From IMG/VR virus record IMGVR_UViG_2648501230_000014: 6,231 nucleotides of DNA. One strand, given 5' to 3'. Positions 431-6,231 of this stretch are shown here, piece after piece. The notes under the pieces were generated by a model, which saw only the letters and a program-made list of their open reading frames with translations, ran no database searches and was not told the origin of the DNA. The position numbers were made by a program, and so were the translations under genes. Within the stretch, counting starts at the first letter, position 1. Each line of letters starts with the position of its first letter. Source of the stretch: a virus. Lineage: Duplodnaviria > Heunggongvirae > Uroviricota > Caudoviricetes.

Positions 431-710
431 ATATAGCATCAATCCAAGTAAAAATGCGCTTTCATTTCACATTAACTTACAGCCATTGGTATACGATTAG
501 GTATACGCACAAAAACTGAATTAAACAAAATCATTAAAAATCAAAGCAATACAATATTTATTCAAACTCCGCCAGCCCAATCATGATTGGACGGTGTAAG
601 GACAACACCAACAAAAACAGGAAGTTAGCAGTCTCAGCAGGACACCGACCAGACGGTGAGGAGACAAAAAAGGATACGCAAAGGAGCCGCGGCTCTCAAG
701 TGTGAAAGAA

Positions 711-736
711 GCCCGCAAATTGCGGGCTTTTTTATT
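711..736 (+). terminator. Rho-independent terminator
   Basis: GCCCGCAA-A-TTGCGGGC (8-bp GC-rich stem, 711-727) followed by TTTTTTATT. Sits immediately upstream of the 789 ORF, insulating it from upstream transcription. Confidence 0.7.
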
Positions 737-788
737 GATCAGTCAACAATAAACAGTAACCGAATGAGAATTTAATAAGGATATTCAT

Positions 789-1820
789 ATGGAAGCTACT
801 GTGGATTCGATTGATTTTCTGATCCGTAGTGAAGATGATTTTCTAAACTTTCTGGAAGAAATGAAAGCCCGAGAGGGGCTTGATTCTAAAGAGTTTATTT
901 TCCCTAACGTAAAGTTTGCAGGCTGGCCATCCTTAGACATAAATGTAAAAGGAGAGCGGTATCATTCATCAATTACATCAGCAATGTTGTTTGGTATGTC
1001 AATGCTCAACGAGGAGATACAGCGGGCGTTTGCAACCATACGATACGGATCGCAGAATCTTCAACGCTTGACTAATGAAGACAAGCAACGACTTGATATA
1101 AATTTTAAAATTAGCGAAGGTTCTAGTGATGCGGAAGGCACCACTGACAAGATCATCAACGCAGTAACTGATTTTTTGCGAGATACTATGTCTGGACTGA
1201 ACGGCTGGCAGAAAATGCTTGTTATAATCACAATGGTTGGCGCGGCCAGCACATGTGGTTATCACTACATTTCAGAAAATGCCGTAACAGAAAGACATGC
1301 AACTGATCGGCAGGTTGAAATTGCAAAAACCACATCCGATGGCATAAACAAAGCCATAGAAGCAACATTAGATTATAAAATCTATGGGAAATCAGCGATT
1401 AGCGATAAAGTTACTAGTCACGGACAAGCAGGTAAAAGTGCTTTAGTGAAGCAATTAGCTGCTGATCCTACTGTCGAAACCGTGACTTTAGGAAATGAGA
1501 AACTAACACGACAAGACCTAAATACCTACAACAGCCGACAATCTGTAGATAGAGAACGTAAAGAACGAACTGATATATTTTCCATCAAAGGTGTAACCAG
1601 AACAGGGCCAACAAATCAGGATATTAATATTAACGTTGTTAGGGTCTCTAATGACGAATGCTTCACAATCAAAGCTTCAGCTGATGTTATCACCCAAGAT
1701 GAGTTGACAGCTATTGTTGACGCTTTGTCAAACAACTCTCATATTAAAATCAGTTACTTAGAGGTAATTGAAAAGGGTGCTGTTTCTATAGGTCAGTTCA
1801 ACACTATTGTTTCAGAATAA
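789..1820 (+). CDS. Hypothetical protein (343 aa), first gene of a cargo operon; possible single-pass membrane protein
   Basis: Long ORF starting at the first ATG after an in-frame stop; AAGGA RBS at 777-781 with 7-nt spacer. Central hydrophobic stretch WQKMLVIITMVGAASTCGYHYI (residues 140-161). No catalytic motif I can assign. AT-rich relative to the tail genes. Confidence 0.8.
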   Translation: MEATVDSIDFLIRSEDDFLNFLEEMKAREGLDSKEFIFPNVKFAGWPSLDINVKGERYHSSITSAMLFGMSMLNEEIQRAFATIRYGSQNLQRLTNEDKQRLDINFKISEGSSDAEGTTDKIINAVTDFLRDTMSGLNGWQKMLVIITMVGAASTCGYHYISENAVTERHATDRQVEIAKTTSDGINKAIEATLDYKIYGKSAISDKVTSHGQAGKSALVKQLAADPTVETVTLGNEKLTRQDLNTYNSRQSVDRERKERTDIFSIKGVTRTGPTNQDININVVRVSNDECFTIKASADVITQDELTAIVDALSNNSHIKISYLEVIEKGAVSIGQFNTIVSE

Positions 1821-1871
1821 TCACTTAACCCCATTTATGTCGGTTGAGGTTATAAGTCACGGAGACCAGAT

Positions 1872-2216
1872 ATGTCCTTAAAGTATGCACATGAAAAATT
1901 TCATACTGCAGTACTTACTCTTGCGGGCCATGGAAGTATTCAAGAACGCTTGATTAATTCGTATGTTTTTAGCCTTGGGCATCTTAAAACAGCCGATGAT
2001 ATTCCAAATGCCTTACAAAGCAGGTTCGATGAATTATGTAAGGAACTGACTAAGTTTGATGCCACTGGCGATGAGGGGCGAGTTCAAGCAACAGTATCAA
2101 AACTTAACGATTTCGAGATCAATAAACTGATCGAAGATATTGTCAGTCTTAACGATGATATTTGCATGAAATTGGCTCTGACGGATGAGACTTACCAAGA
2201 CATACACCAAAGTTAA
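1872..2216 (+). CDS. Hypothetical protein (114 aa), second gene of the cargo operon
   Basis: GGAGA RBS at 1861-1865 with 6-nt spacer before ATG 1872. Lies 51 bp downstream of the 343-aa ORF on the same strand, followed by a hairpin at 2244-2266. Acidic, predicted helical, no recognisable motif. Confidence 0.75.
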   Translation: MSLKYAHEKFHTAVLTLAGHGSIQERLINSYVFSLGHLKTADDIPNALQSRFDELCKELTKFDATGDEGRVQATVSKLNDFEINKLIEDIVSLNDDICMKLALTDETYQDIHQS

Positions 2217-2243
2217 TTGATTAAATTCAAAAAGTTAACGTTC

Positions 2244-2266
2244 AACCAGCCAGTTTTTGGCTGGTT
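2244..2266. terminator. Probable bidirectional terminator hairpin between convergent genes
   Basis: AACCAGCC (2244-2251) / GGCTGGTT (2259-2266), 8-bp stem with 7-nt loop AGTTTTT, T-rich flank. Positioned between the 3' ends of the 1872..2216 (+) and 2301..2513 (-) genes. Confidence 0.45.
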
Positions 2267-2300
2267 TATTGTCTTATAATATTCTTGCTCGAATGATGCA

Positions 2301-2513
2301 CTATTTATGATGTAATCCGGACATCAGTTCATGGACAAGATTATCTCTTTCATTGTGTTGCAACCGTAAATGCATAGCAAAAAGGTGAGCACTATCCTCA
2401 TTCCTCTTCAAGCCATGCTGTTCAAGATACCCGAAAAAACGGCTTCTCTTATCCGCTATTTCCTGAGTCTGACGTGCAACATTTACCAAATTTTCTAGCG
2501 TTTTTCTTGGCAT
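2301..2513 (-). CDS. Hypothetical small protein (70 aa)
   Basis: Strong AGGAGG Shine-Dalgarno (complement of 2522-2527) 8 nt upstream of ATG (complement of 2511-2513). Basic, predicted helical. Lies downstream of the invertase on the same strand, where e14 of K-12 carries mcrA. Confidence 0.65.
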   Translation of the reverse strand: MPRKTLENLVNVARQTQEIADKRSRFFGYLEQHGLKRNEDSAHLFAMHLRLQHNERDNLVHELMSGLHHK

Positions 2514-2711
2514 ACTATTTCCTCCTGAAATTGTTGTAATTCACTAGGATATTCATTTTAATTTGTATCATTTAGTACCAAAACCGCTATCAATTAACAA
2601 AGCCATCGTTGTGGTTTACCTTGCAGCCGTTTTTTGTCATTGACTCTATGTGAAAATAATGAATCATCATGAGATTGGCTCACACGTTCTTGAATTCGAC
2701 GAGCTGTGTCT

Positions 2712-3266
2712 TTATTTATCTCCTGCCGGAAACCTCTGATACAAAGTCGATACGCCAACATCATAGATAATCGCAACTTTCTGGCGCGGAACTCCTGATG
2801 CAATTAATCGTCCGGCTTGTGCCCATTGTTCTGGTGTAAGTTTGGGACGACGTCCACCAATTCGTCCCTGTGCGCGAGCAGCTTCCAGTCCAGCTTTTGT
2901 TCGTTCAACAATCAGTTCTCGTTCCATTTCAGCCAGGGCCCCCATCACATGAAAGAAAAAGCGCCCCATTGGGGTACTGGTATCAATTGAATCCGTCAGA
3001 CTACGAAAGTTGATGCCTCGTTCGCGCAACTCCTCCACCAGCACGACAAGATGCCGCATACTGCGCCCCAGTCGGTCCAGTTTCCAGACCACCAGCGTAT
3101 CGCCTGCCGATAATGTCCTGAGCAGTTTTTTCAGTCCCGGCCTTTCGGACTTTGTACCGCTTATCTTGTCTTCAAAAATCAGCTCGCATCCTGCACAGTT
3201 CAGCGCATTACGTTGTAGATCTGTGTTCTGGTCATTTGTTGACACACGTACATAGCCAATAAGCAT
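2712..3266 (-). CDS. pin: Site-specific DNA invertase, serine recombinase of the Pin/Gin/Cin/Hin family
   Basis: 184-aa product MLIGYVRVSTNDQNTDLQRN...WKLDRLGRS...GINFRSLTDSIDTS.PMGRFFFHVMGALAEMERELI.ERT is an unmistakable match to Gin/Pin invertases (catalytic Ser in YVRVSTNDQ, C-terminal HTH). Start set at the ATG (3266..3264) preceded by GGGAGA, not at the longer ORF-track start at 3302. Stop TAA at 2714..2712. Confidence 0.93.
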   Translation of the reverse strand: MLIGYVRVSTNDQNTDLQRNALNCAGCELIFEDKISGTKSERPGLKKLLRTLSAGDTLVVWKLDRLGRSMRHLVVLVEELRERGINFRSLTDSIDTSTPMGRFFFHVMGALAEMERELIVERTKAGLEAARAQGRIGGRRPKLTPEQWAQAGRLIASGVPRQKVAIIYDVGVSTLYQRFPAGDK

Positions 3267-3292
3267 GGTAGATCTCCCTGACAAAAGCAGGA

Positions 3293-3805
3293 ATGATGCC
3301 ATTTGCTCGTTATTTCTGCATTTTCATAAACGTTGGTTTGGGAGAAGGTTCGGCATTACCCGTTGGTGTGCCTGTTCCGTGGCCTTCCGCCACTCCGCCA
3401 ACGGGGTGGCTAAAATGTAACGGAGCAGTATTTTCTTCTGAAAAGTACCCAAATCTGGCAAAGGCTTACCCAACATTAAAATTACCAGATTTACGCGGTG
3501 AATTTATTCGTGGCTGGGATGATGGGCGCGGGATTGACTCTGGTCGTAACTTATTATCTGCACAGAATGATGCAATTCAGAATATTGTTGGTTCTTTTGG
3601 GCGTACCCAGCTTTTTAGAGACGTACTTAGTTCAGGGCCATTTAGTCAACATGGGCAAGTATTATCTACAGGTCTAAAGGAAGCCGAAATTATTGAGGGT
3701 TATGGCGCTTATAACTGGACATTCGACGCATCTCGCTCAGTTCGCACAGCATCTGAAACCCGCTCCCGTAACATCGCCTTTAATTATATTGTGAGGGCTG
3801 CATGA
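3293..3805 (+). CDS. Alternative tail-fibre C-terminal variable cassette (promoterless, OFF orientation; stfE-like fragment)
   Basis: Translation contains the tail-fibre C-terminal signature ...GWLKCNGAVFSSEKYPNLAKAYPTLKLPDLRGEFIRGWDDGRGIDSGRNLLSAQNDAIQNI... The reading frame passes through the crossover site (NVGLGEG). The functional part begins at about 3335; the ATG at 3293 is probably fortuitous. Confidence 0.7.
   Translation: MMPFARYFCIFINVGLGEGSALPVGVPVPWPSATPPTGWLKCNGAVFSSEKYPNLAKAYPTLKLPDLRGEFIRGWDDGRGIDSGRNLLSAQNDAIQNIVGSFGRTQLFRDVLSSGPFSQHGQVLSTGLKEAEIIEGYGAYNWTFDASRSVRTASETRSRNIAFNYIVRAA
3321..3346. promoter_or_regulatory. Invertase crossover site (pix/gix/hix-like), pin-proximal
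   Basis: TTTTCATAAACGTTGGTTTGGGAGAA; reverse complement TTCTCCCAAACC-AA-CGTTTATGAAAA follows the 12-2-12 hix/gix layout (compare hixL TTCTTGAAAACC-AA-GGTTTTTGATAA as recalled). It is an inverted repeat of the site at 5266-5291. Confidence 0.8.
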
Positions 3806-4407
3806 TAAGTAAAGCTGTATTAAATAATGAACTCATCGCCACAAAGGCCGGAGACATTACCGTTTATAATTATGATGGTGAAACACGGGAATATATTTCC
3901 ACATCAACTGAATATCTTGCTGTGGGTGTTGGTATCCCGGCATGTTCCTGTTTAGATGCTCCTGGCTCATATAAAGCTGGTTATGCAATTTGCCGTTCTG
4001 CAGATTTTAACTCATGGGAATATGTGCCAGACCATCGCGGTGAAATCGTCTATAGCACCGAAACAGGAGAATCAAAAGAAATCACAGTTCCGGGTGATTA
4101 CCCTGAAAATACAACCACTATCGCCCCGTTAACGTCATACGATAAATGGGATGGTGAGAAATGGGTGACCGATACTGAGGCACAGCATAACGCCGCAGTA
4201 GACGCGGCAGAAGTACGGCGCCAGTCACTGATTGATGCTGCTATGGCTTCCATTAGTCTGATTCAGCTGAAATTGCAGGCCGGGCGGAAGCTGACGCAGG
4301 CAGAAACAACCCGGCTTAACGCTGTGCTGGATTACATTGACGCGGTGACTGCAACAGATACCAGCACCGCGCCGGATGTCATCTGGCCTGAACTACCGGA
4401 GGCGTAG
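3802..4407 (+). CDS. tfa: Tail-fibre assembly protein (Tfa family), alternative copy
   Basis: 201 aa; start overlaps the upstream stop (ATGA). Lambda-Tfa-like motifs: VPDHRGEIVY, YDKWDGEKWVTDTEAQ, C-terminal VTATDTSTAPDVIWPELPEA. Confidence 0.85.
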   Translation: MISKAVLNNELIATKAGDITVYNYDGETREYISTSTEYLAVGVGIPACSCLDAPGSYKAGYAICRSADFNSWEYVPDHRGEIVYSTETGESKEITVPGDYPENTTTIAPLTSYDKWDGEKWVTDTEAQHNAAVDAAEVRRQSLIDAAMASISLIQLKLQAGRKLTQAETTRLNAVLDYIDAVTATDTSTAPDVIWPELPEA

Positions 4408-4822
4408 GCCATTCAATATCTGGAGCACTGGAGGTATCAACCAGTTCCAGTGCGTCCAGATAATCCAGCCATAAATTATATTGTTCCAGCTCGTAACCTT
4501 TCAGACGACCAATAGCAGCTTTGCCAGGCCACTGATGGGTATTGATGTAGGTATTGACTTCTGAAACCAAAGATATCTTTTTCATTTCAGCCGCCAGCAT
4601 CTCATCCTCTTTTGAAGGCGGCGGGGAATTAATCCATATTGGCCGTCCTGAACTGTCAGCGCCAATTTCTTTCCCTTCTGGATGCAGCCCAAGAAATTGC
4701 TCATATGTTTCTCTGGTAATTTCAATAACATCATCAGGAAGCGTTCCCGCATCCTCATATTCTGGAAACAATTCTTGCAGATAAAAACTTTTACTTGCGG
4801 GTGAAAAGAATACTGAGTTCAT
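4379..4822 (-). CDS. tfa: Tail-fibre assembly protein (Tfa family), currently expressed copy
   Basis: 147 aa; ATG (4822..4820) lies 2 nt after the tail-fibre stop. C-terminal Tfa signature LWLDYLDALELVDTSSAPDIEWPTPP. Its 3' end overlaps the convergent tfa by 29 bp. Confidence 0.85.
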   Translation of the reverse strand: MNSVFFSPASKSFYLQELFPEYEDAGTLPDDVIEITRETYEQFLGLHPEGKEIGADSSGRPIWINSPPPSKEDEMLAAEMKKISLVSEVNTYINTHQWPGKAAIGRLKGYELEQYNLWLDYLDALELVDTSSAPDIEWPTPPVVQAR

Positions 4823-4824
4823 TC

Positions 4825-5568
4825 TTACCGTCCAATGATTAACGCTGAGACGCTGGTATCTGAAGGAAAGGCTGCATTCAGTGGTTTGTCGACTTTGAAC
4901 ACAATCGTATTATTCCCCCTGACAGCGGCAAAAGAACAAACCGCCGTCGCGTATGAACCTGTAATATTACTGGATACACCACCATAAGCTGTTGTTGATA
5001 CCAGAGGGATAACGCCCAGCACCTTATTAGGAAATACAAAGGGCAATGTGGCTGTGGCAATATAAGACTTATTAGAACCTGTAATGGCATAAGCATTATC
5101 AGTCATTCCATTCATCGCCACTGGACCGCTTATACTTACAGTAACCATCTGAATGATTAGCCCGTCAGGTTGACGAATCACAAAATTTCCATTGCCACCA
5201 GTAACCGTCCAGAAAGACATATCAGGGATTTGGTTTTCCCCGTTGCCCACATTTCGTTTTGCCGCTTCTCCCAAACCAAGGTTTTCGAGAGCCGTTTTCA
5301 CCGTGCCATCAGATTTGATATCGCCAAACGGATTCTTGCGGCTTAACAGCAGCGCACGAAGCGCGGTAAGCAGCTGGTCATGCCGCCCCTTCTCCAGGCT
5401 GGCACCGGATGCCTCCACCACGCTGCAGAGTTCTTCCTGCAACATGTCAAAGTAGTCATCATCCAGATCGGTGGCAGGTGTGCCGGTCTGGGGGTTACCA
5501 CGGGTAAAACCGTTCTTACCCGCGCCGAACTTATCCTTCTGCGCGGTTTTCGTGTCTATACGATGCAT
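4825..5568 (-). CDS. Tail fibre protein (constant N-terminal part outside, variable C-terminal part inside the invertible segment; stfP-like)
   Basis: 247 aa; GGAG RBS 6 nt upstream of ATG (5568..5566). The crossover site lies in-frame at residues ~93-101 ([10 protein letters not shown]). Follows the gpI-like gene with a 3-nt gap. Confidence 0.85.
5266..5291. promoter_or_regulatory. Invertase crossover site (pix/gix/hix-like), inside the tail-fibre gene
   Basis: TTCTCCCAAACC-AA-GGTTTTCGAGAG. Matches the pin-proximal site in inverted orientation at 18 of 20 positions around the AA/TT core. Confidence 0.8.
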
Positions 5569-5571
5569 GGA

Positions 5572-6229
<658 letters not shown>

Positions 6230-6231
6230 CA

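Follow-up and report, generated by a model that had tools for sequence, protein, structure and literature searches.

Phage P4 integrates into the tRNA-Leu gene leuX. The arm of its attP contains an annotated 'attP arm sequence repeat' made of two tandem 12-nt units, which is separated from the core by 53 nt; past the core, 112 nt intervene before two more arm units and an inverted one at the start of int. In the circular form of P4-like elements, the att site alone is found between alpha and int (P4 record; PMC8628076). When an island integrates, it restores the target gene, and a displaced fragment of this gene marks the island end (the Islander principle; PMC4383910); the tmRNA gene is the most enriched island target, and tandem arrays occur (PMC4383910). 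CP4-57 has been reported to integrate into ssrA, the tmRNA gene (PMC3105296), and the equivalent fragment at its right end in Escherichia coli K-12 is annotated as the pseudogene psaA (b4645). Lastly, the temperate Escherichia phage LLS (PQ299149.1) carries, in this order, xis, int, gene 31, attP, a trailer, cargo genes, the Fin invertase and invertible tail fibres.

We analysed a stretch of 6,231 nt (IMG/VR record IMGVR_UViG_2648501230_000014), which we refer to as the window. The sequence-only reading of this DNA had flagged positions 440–736 as an AT-rich intergenic region with perfect palindromes and a strong terminator at its end, possibly corresponding to an unannotated transcript. The coordinates of palindromes and terminator proved accurate, whereas those of a GTATACG direct repeat did not, and the AT-richness holds only for positions 424–560. 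We consider it very probable that 440–736 combines the attR site of a P4-like satellite, integrated into the 3' end of ssrA (the tmRNA gene), with the usual downstream flank of this gene. From left to right, the satellite would end with the alpha primase gene, the alpha terminator and the crr repeats, followed by its AT-rich attP arm (424–560) with two GGTATACG integrase arm sites, 12 nt apart; the recombination core (561–579) would be a degenerate copy of the last ca. 20 nt of tmRNA, and would lead into an ssrA trailer of ca. 155 nt (580–736) whose terminator would stop ssrA transcription in satellite-free genomes. The trailer would itself derive from an older, LLS-type temperate phage, as one arm of its attP, and a decayed remnant of this phage would fill the remaining window; the satellite would have arrived later than this prophage, inserting either at the 3' end of tmRNA or at a degenerate copy of that end. 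This reading builds on direct observations, namely the homologies, the positions, the presence of conserved motifs in both arms and the displacement of the terminator. The region is a feature of an already known kind, in which attachment sites are stacked at the tmRNA gene and the trailer and terminator of ssrA are displaced.

Positions 1–422 of the window are 97.9% identical to phage P4 (X51522), and homology to P4 ends at 422. The 3' end of a P4-family primase-helicase gene (alpha) occupies positions 1–76 on the plus strand, with the end of the P4 alpha CDS mapping to window position 76; homologues of this gene in E. coli are annotated as primase. It is followed, on the same strand, by t-alpha, the terminator of the alpha operon (84–108), a terminator-like GACCGGCATCTGCCGGTC with a T8 run that corresponds to the annotated 'talpha' of P4, and then by crr, the cis-acting replication region (122–423), which aligns to the P4 'crr' and to both copies of its 'crr 120bp direct repeat'. 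The two direct repeats of ca. 120 bp (123–243 and 303–423) bear TGTTCACC/GGTGAACA type-1 octamer repeats, ten of which are annotated in the crr of the P4 record as 'ori type 1 repeats', and were also found independently as a repeat family of the window (D1) with a 180-nt spacing. The window thus presents the arrangement that characterizes the right end of such satellites: an alpha primase gene and then a crr with two 120-bp repeats and TGTTCACC-type iterons. Additionally, the first 739 nt of the window are always found 3' of a P4-type primase gene in E. coli genomes. In a locus from E. coli GCA_977067085.1 (L098), 99.7–100% identical to the window, the upstream region contains Psu, Ogr_Delta and AlpA genes and a primase of 777 aa, with the fetched stretch stopping 10 kb upstream, before int; an element of the same type in E. 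coli MS 21-1 includes int, psu, delta and primase. By its gene and repeat content, the left part of the window is the right end (alpha-crr-att) of a P4-like satellite. In MS 21-1, another island (with DotA/TraY, RepL and H-NS genes) lies between the satellite and the expected position of ssrA, and no ssrA was found within the stretch that was fetched.

The sequence that follows the loss of P4 homology at 422 corresponds to the AT-rich arm of the satellite attP on the alpha/crr side (424–560). Its G+C content is 29%, as compared to 48% for 580–736, while 440–736 averages 41% versus 45% in the remaining window. Together with the trailer, this arm is maintained at 93–95% identity in some 300 E. 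coli genomes, in each of which it follows a P4-like primase. It contains two tandem candidate arm-type integrase sites, TTGGTATACG and TTAGGTATACG (486–507, plus strand), which share the direct repeat GGTATACG at 488–495 and 500–507, with a 12-nt spacing. The GTATACG repeat reported earlier at 496–514 does exist, but its true copies are at 489–495 and 501–507 (span 489–507). The bare 8-mer GGTATACG is not more abundant than expected by chance, and its significance comes from the comparison with other loci and not from its copy number. At the other end of the element in E. coli MS 21-1, four copies of GGTATACG immediately precede the start codon of the integrase, two of them direct and 12 nt apart and two inverted, ca. 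114 nt past the core. Likewise, the pattern TTGGTATACGnnTWGGTATACG follows genuine ssrA genes in Enterobacter chuandaensis, E. cloacae, Pectobacterium, Rosenbergiella and Serratia; in these Enterobacter, Pectobacterium, Rosenbergiella and Serratia loci, the order after ssrA is a trailer hairpin, a terminator, this pattern and inverted copies. In the window, 53 nt separate positions 507 and 561, which equals the distance from repeat to core in P4. The arm therefore displays what is characteristic of a tyrosine-integrase attP arm: tandem repeats that keep a set distance to the core, and a motif that is also present in the arm on the int side. We assign 486–507 as putative arm-type sites for the integrase, with predicted binding, and 424–560 as the putative attP arm of the satellite, because the motif recurs next to int and after ssrA, and because P4 and CP4-57 share the same layout.

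Alignment to genuine ssrA ends identified positions 561–579 (plus strand; TTCAAACTCCGCCAGCCCA) as a degenerate tmRNA 3' end, the att core at attR. The core aligns as TTCAAACTCCGCCAGC----CCA to the genuine tmRNA end TTCAACTCCCGCCAGCTCCACCA, differing from it by substitutions and by a 4-nt gap (TCCA is absent), and ARAGORN did not find any tRNA or tmRNA gene in the window. In E. coli 602687, which has no island after ssrA, the sequence from the tmRNA CCA onward is 100% identical to window positions 577–6231, position 579 being the counterpart of the last base of ssrA. When positions 430–745 were used as query, 4268 of the 5426 complete E. coli genomes gave a match, in most cases limited to 565–739; in many of them the match overlaps the annotated end of ssrA (its last 20 nt), as in strain CUVET23-CCU17, where it starts 20 nt before the ssrA end. 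The window therefore contains a displaced ssrA fragment, degenerate and without 4 nt, that is in the orientation of ssrA, lies at the distal end of the island and leads into the flank that ssrA has when no island is inserted, and the right boundary of the satellite is at about 579. Integration of the satellite at ssrA would rest on the homologous loci, with the window itself containing neither ssrA nor the satellite integrase. Both junctions of the satellite in MS 21-1 carry the same 4-nt (TCCA) deletion (L005, 4448–4439; L003, about 9150). Because this deletion of the core is common to both junctions, it suggests that the satellite may have inserted in a degenerate secondary site, similar to psaA, within a tandem array, and not directly at ssrA.

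The sequence downstream of the core (580–736, plus strand) corresponds to the ssrA 3' trailer, as indicated by its identity to strain 602687, and by homology would be the attP arm of an LLS-like temperate phage. This trailer, with both palindromes and the terminator, shows 87.6% identity to phage LLS over window positions 565–736 (172 nt), and the match adjoins the annotated 'tmRNA pseudogene / attP' of this phage. Homology is thus found beside a tmRNA fragment and is accompanied by synteny of cargo genes, the Fin/Pin invertase and tail fibres. Two other loci (L095 and L100) contain intact LLS-like prophages directly after the trailer, and in a third (L096) an attP-like junction is preceded by an integrase of 391 aa with an Arm-DNA-bind_2 domain, of the LLS type. 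We also inspected the sequence following the tmRNA CCA in 80 loci from different species, anchored on smpB, to examine if the trailer is native. Homologues of the trailer were found after ssrA in E. albertii, Xenorhabdus, Enterobacter soli, Proteus, Providencia, Arsenophonus and Yersinia, while most of the species sampled have short, island-supplied trailers after this gene. The idea that 580–736 is a native host trailer was dropped after this survey and the phage search showed a phage attP arm. To judge from these comparisons, the usual ssrA 3' flank in most E. coli strains is one arm of an LLS-type attP.

The intrinsic terminator at the end of the trailer (705–736, plus strand) was present as claimed by the sequence-only reading, with a hairpin GCCCGCAAATTGCGGGC (711–727) followed by T6 (728–733). 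Its GC stem (711–716/722–727) is flanked by the T-run and by an A-tract (705–710), and it is possibly bidirectional. A consensus terminator scan did not list 711–733, probably because the stem extends into the flanking A/T tracts (705–718 pairs with 720–733). The stem shows compensatory changes within E. coli (GCCCGC/GCGGGC versus GCCCAC/GTGGGC) and also across genera, and its position is conserved. In E. coli genomes without an island after ssrA, it is situated ca. 155 nt past the ssrA CCA and, in other strains, ypjA converges on it. A GC-rich hairpin and a T-run therefore occur at the predicted end of a transcription unit and, because it is the first terminator after ssrA where no island is inserted, 705–736 is most plausibly the terminator of ssrA (the tmRNA precursor) in genomes without the satellite. 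In the window, the transcription unit closest upstream is the alpha operon, which ends in a terminator of its own (84–108). It had been argued that so strong a terminator implies an incoming transcript; this is right in the sense of the known ssrA transcript, but not for a new transcript arising in 440–736. From the order of these features, the terminator in the window is cut off from the ssrA promoter by the inserted satellite. In the LLS-type phage, this terminator would allow the restoration of a complete ssrA transcription unit upon integration.

Sequence reading and a scripted enumeration both confirmed the two palindromes, a perfect 14-bp CCAATCATGATTGG at 577–590 and a perfect 12-bp GAGCCGCGGCTC at 684–695. 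Finding two perfect palindromes of at least 12 bp in 440–736 exceeds the mean of 0.07 obtained with 1000 dinucleotide-preserving shuffles (P = 0.002), and the whole window contains five versus 1.7 expected (P = 0.03). Absence of the palindromes from homologous loci had been proposed as an observation that would speak against the predicted transcript; instead, the two palindromes are retained in E. coli as well as in phage LLS and, judging from that conservation, they are part of the attachment-site arm. The first one, CCAATCATGATTGG, covers the terminal CCA of tmRNA plus the initial 11 nt of the trailer, and it is identical in E. coli without an island after ssrA and in the attP of LLS; the corresponding position in Proteus and Providencia is taken by another inverted repeat, CCACCAAATTTGGTGG. 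The region between the palindromes includes a GTCTCAGCAGGAC motif and RGAC repeats (631–665, plus strand), which from their sequence are candidate protein-binding sites. RGAC appears in an 11-nt phase at 640, 651 and 662, with a second pair at 589 and 600; the 631–665 block is conserved across genera, and GTCTCAGYAGGAC and TAGGACRGC are present in both attP arms of LLS. Immediately downstream (667–695, plus strand), the arm-type repeat AAAAAGGATACGCAAAG (667–683) is followed by a degenerate second unit that forms the palindrome GAGCCGCGGCTC. The counterpart of AAAAAGGATACGCAAAG in LLS is GGTACGTGAAAGATAC, and it recurs as AAAAAGGATACGTGAAG in the opposite arm of the LLS-like junction of L096. 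In other genera, the positions equivalent to 667–695 are occupied by a tandem 11-nt repeat whose two units change together (e.g., GATACGCAAAAGATACGCGG in Yersinia, TGCACGTGAAATGCACGTG in Xenorhabdus and ATGACACGTAAATGACACGCGG in Proteus). By comparison with Yersinia (GATACGCGGCTCC), the E. coli palindrome GAGCCGCGGCTC is the diverged second unit plus the following CTC. Because the units co-vary and the motifs recur in both attP arms, we infer that the palindromes and phased repeats are, or overlap, predicted sites for an arm-binding integrase of the LLS type and accessory proteins.

This interpretation has to be weighed against alternatives concerning the origin of the trailer and its possible expression. 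The trailer could be the ancestral ssrA 3' flank of Enterobacterales, later copied by LLS-like phages, which would change its origin and leave the function of trailer and terminator unaltered. Its presence after ssrA in most E. coli genomes (the 4268 of 5426 above), as well as in species of Yersinia, Proteus, Providencia, Xenorhabdus, Enterobacter and Arsenophonus, is in agreement with such an origin; however, the trailer also resides inside packaged phage genomes, beside int and attP, and is always contiguous with cargo and tail-fibre genes of the LLS type or with intact prophages. Moreover, its repeats recur in the other attP arm, and other species bear quite different, island-supplied trailers directly after the CCA, so we regard an ancestral flank as unlikely. 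Lower still is the probability that we attach to an independent small RNA, or a stable RNA processed from the trailer, which would span ca. 580–733, end at the terminator and have the palindromes as RNA hairpins. As a single sequence, positions 577–740 (164 nt) fold into a row of hairpins better than their shuffles (z = -3.6), the block is conserved after ssrA in several genera, and a hairpin at 595–609 keeps its pairing in phage LLS through a compensatory change; besides, tRNA trailers can yield functional RNAs, such as 3'ETS-leuZ. Conversely, the consensus fold of 12 sequences across genera reaches only -2.4 kcal/mol, with the terminator and one small hairpin persisting, and a covariance search of the whole window with Rfam 15 gave no plus-strand match in 440–736 at E ≤ 1. 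The sole overlap was a minus-strand Trp_leader (703–768; 21.7 bits versus a gathering threshold of 41), which is just the terminator hairpin. A promoter scan of positions 1–1000 found no plus-strand sigma-70-like promoter, only a weak minus-strand site at 699–671. Furthermore, the most variable elements of the trailer are tandem direct repeats that change together, as occurs with protein-binding DNA sites and unlike stems, and the same motifs are found in the opposite attP arm, which is not a trailer. The proposal that a small RNA or an operator-controlled leader arises in 440–736 thus finds no backing in Rfam matches, plus-strand promoters or structure across genera, and in the present arrangement the region would produce no transcript of its own.

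We give almost no credence to an operator-controlled leader, or a small protein gene, that would regulate or precede the downstream gene of 343 aa. The two perfect palindromes are indeed upstream of the ORF starting at 789, but the terminator separates them from this gene, and elsewhere the same trailer precedes unrelated genes (a converging ypjA, or RnlAB). As to a small protein, the frames present, of 40 aa (583–705, plus strand) and 45 aa (581–718, minus strand), are truncated or frame-shifted in homologues: the plus-strand ORF has 28 aa in K-12 and 5 aa in LLS, and lacks its ATG in E. albertii (ATCGTGATTGG), whereas the minus-strand frames differ between variants. The small-ORF hypothesis was ruled out on this lack of conservation, and the earlier judgement that the region contains no convincing ORF was correct. 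A further reading, compatible with the phage origin of the trailer although about as improbable as the small RNA, is that the phage-grafted trailer of ca. 155 nt is also a functional RNA, either a stable regulatory RNA or a control of tmRNA 3' maturation. In the latter case, maturation would be controlled through the inverted repeat that includes the CCA end, and prophage integration would rewire tmRNA biogenesis. Immediately behind the tmRNA CCA, the sequence of this ca. 155-nt trailer is conserved in genera ranging from Escherichia to Yersinia, Proteus and Xenorhabdus. Additionally, phage Ayreon shares the inner arm, without the tmRNA fragment, at 87.5% identity (window 584–695; L090, 4001–4106; ca. 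110 nt). A related integrase was ruled out as the cause, the integrases being unrelated, and integrase binding alone does not explain the sharing of this inner arm by Ayreon. Because Ayreon has the inner arm and an unrelated integrase, part of the trailer arm may serve something besides integrase binding.

Returning to the attachment-site reading, the remaining window (737–6231) would correspond to the decayed left end of the LLS-like prophage, with Pfam matches and with its genes arranged as in LLS between attP and the tail fibres, the Fin invertase included. Next to the trailer there are three cargo ORFs without Pfam matches, at 789–1820 (343 aa), 1872–2216 (114 aa) and, on the minus strand, 2301–2513 (70 aa), and by its content 789–2513 looks like a variable cargo or defence slot. 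They are followed by a Pin invertase gene (2712–3302, minus strand; ca. 79% identity to LLS Fin by tblastx), which adjoins an invertible tail-fibre segment (about 3328–5284) with tail-fibre C-terminal and assembly genes. Pfam also identified a tail-fibre gene (4825–5568) and a Mu Gp48-like baseplate gene (5572–6183), both on the minus strand, and an IS3 element starts at ca. 6204, where strains 602687 and L098 also have one annotated. The segment 3328–5284 is inverted in L098, which is otherwise 99.7–100% identical to the window; this opposite orientation, the adjoining Pin gene and the tail-fibre gene content mark it as an active, or recently active, invertible tail-fibre switch. A partial Rfam match to isrC at 6200–6231, cut by the window end (25.8 bits versus a gathering threshold of 39), probably reflects the end of an IS and not an isrC gene, because it coincides with the start of the IS3-family element. 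Other strains carry RnlA/RnlB or ypjA at the position of the cargo genes.

The smpB-anchored survey offers a broader context for this arrangement. In almost every Enterobacterales species sampled (loci L009–L088), ssrA is followed by an element-supplied trailer, consisting of a hairpin/terminator and then tandem 11–12-nt repeats of a lineage-specific motif, such as TAGGCCCA, GGTATACG, TGGCGGCA or GTCCAC, among others. Mobile elements are thus a routine source of the tmRNA terminator. In 27 of the 80 loci, ARAGORN found no ssrA within 1.5 kb downstream of smpB, and blastn with the E. coli ssrA on 12 of these 27 also found nothing; the 27 loci (including L013–L016, L018, L022, L041, L045, L051, L054 and Pasteurellaceae) were left out of the trailer survey. 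One of them, from Salmonella enterica, has a convergent gene after smpB. What looked like an orphan terminator with palindromes is the kind of scar to be expected when integrations stack up at the tmRNA gene, which is the most common island target. For annotation purposes, our reading fixes the right boundary of the satellite, accounts for the break in homology with other strains at about 739, and indicates that the presumed native 3' flank of ssrA in E. coli is common to the attP arm of living phages. Mobile elements supply the trailer and terminator of an RNA gene from an essential pathway, and what they supply differs greatly from one element to another, a modest point that may merit the attention of phage and tmRNA specialists.

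Compared to the known systems, the locus resembles the alpha-crr-attP region of P4 in having tandem 12-nt arm repeats, then 53 nt and a core whose end coincides with the CCA of the targeted RNA gene, as well as extra copies of the arm repeat ca. 112–114 nt past the core and adjoining int, which for the satellite are seen in MS 21-1. Conversely, the window from 423 on is unrelated to the P4 sequence, the arm motif is GGTATACG instead of the GGGGGCA of P4, the core copies the tmRNA gene and not the tRNA-Leu gene leuX, and the window holds one arm only, because the element is integrated. As with Islander-type tDNA fragments, a displaced 3' fragment of the target gene is located at the far end of the island, although here the copy is degenerate and lies between two generations of mobile elements. 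CP4-57 and psaA share with the window the chromosomal site, a degenerate tmRNA 3' fragment (ATTCAGACTCCGCCAGC-CCACCA in K-12), and the same trailer and terminator, followed in K-12 by ypjA; the layout of the arm repeats is also that of P4 and the window, with a different motif. CP4-57 is nevertheless a different island, with no alpha or crr at its right end and with arm repeats AGGACCAA/GGGACCAA at attR and TAGGCCCA at attL, and the fragment in the window has lost three more bases than that of K-12. Finally, phage LLS has in common with the window both palindromes, the terminator and a tmRNA fragment at attP, followed by cargo genes, a serine invertase and invertible tail fibres; however, LLS retains an intact 39-nt tmRNA fragment, both arms, int and xis, whereas the window preserves one surviving arm and a prophage remnant without int and with other cargo genes.
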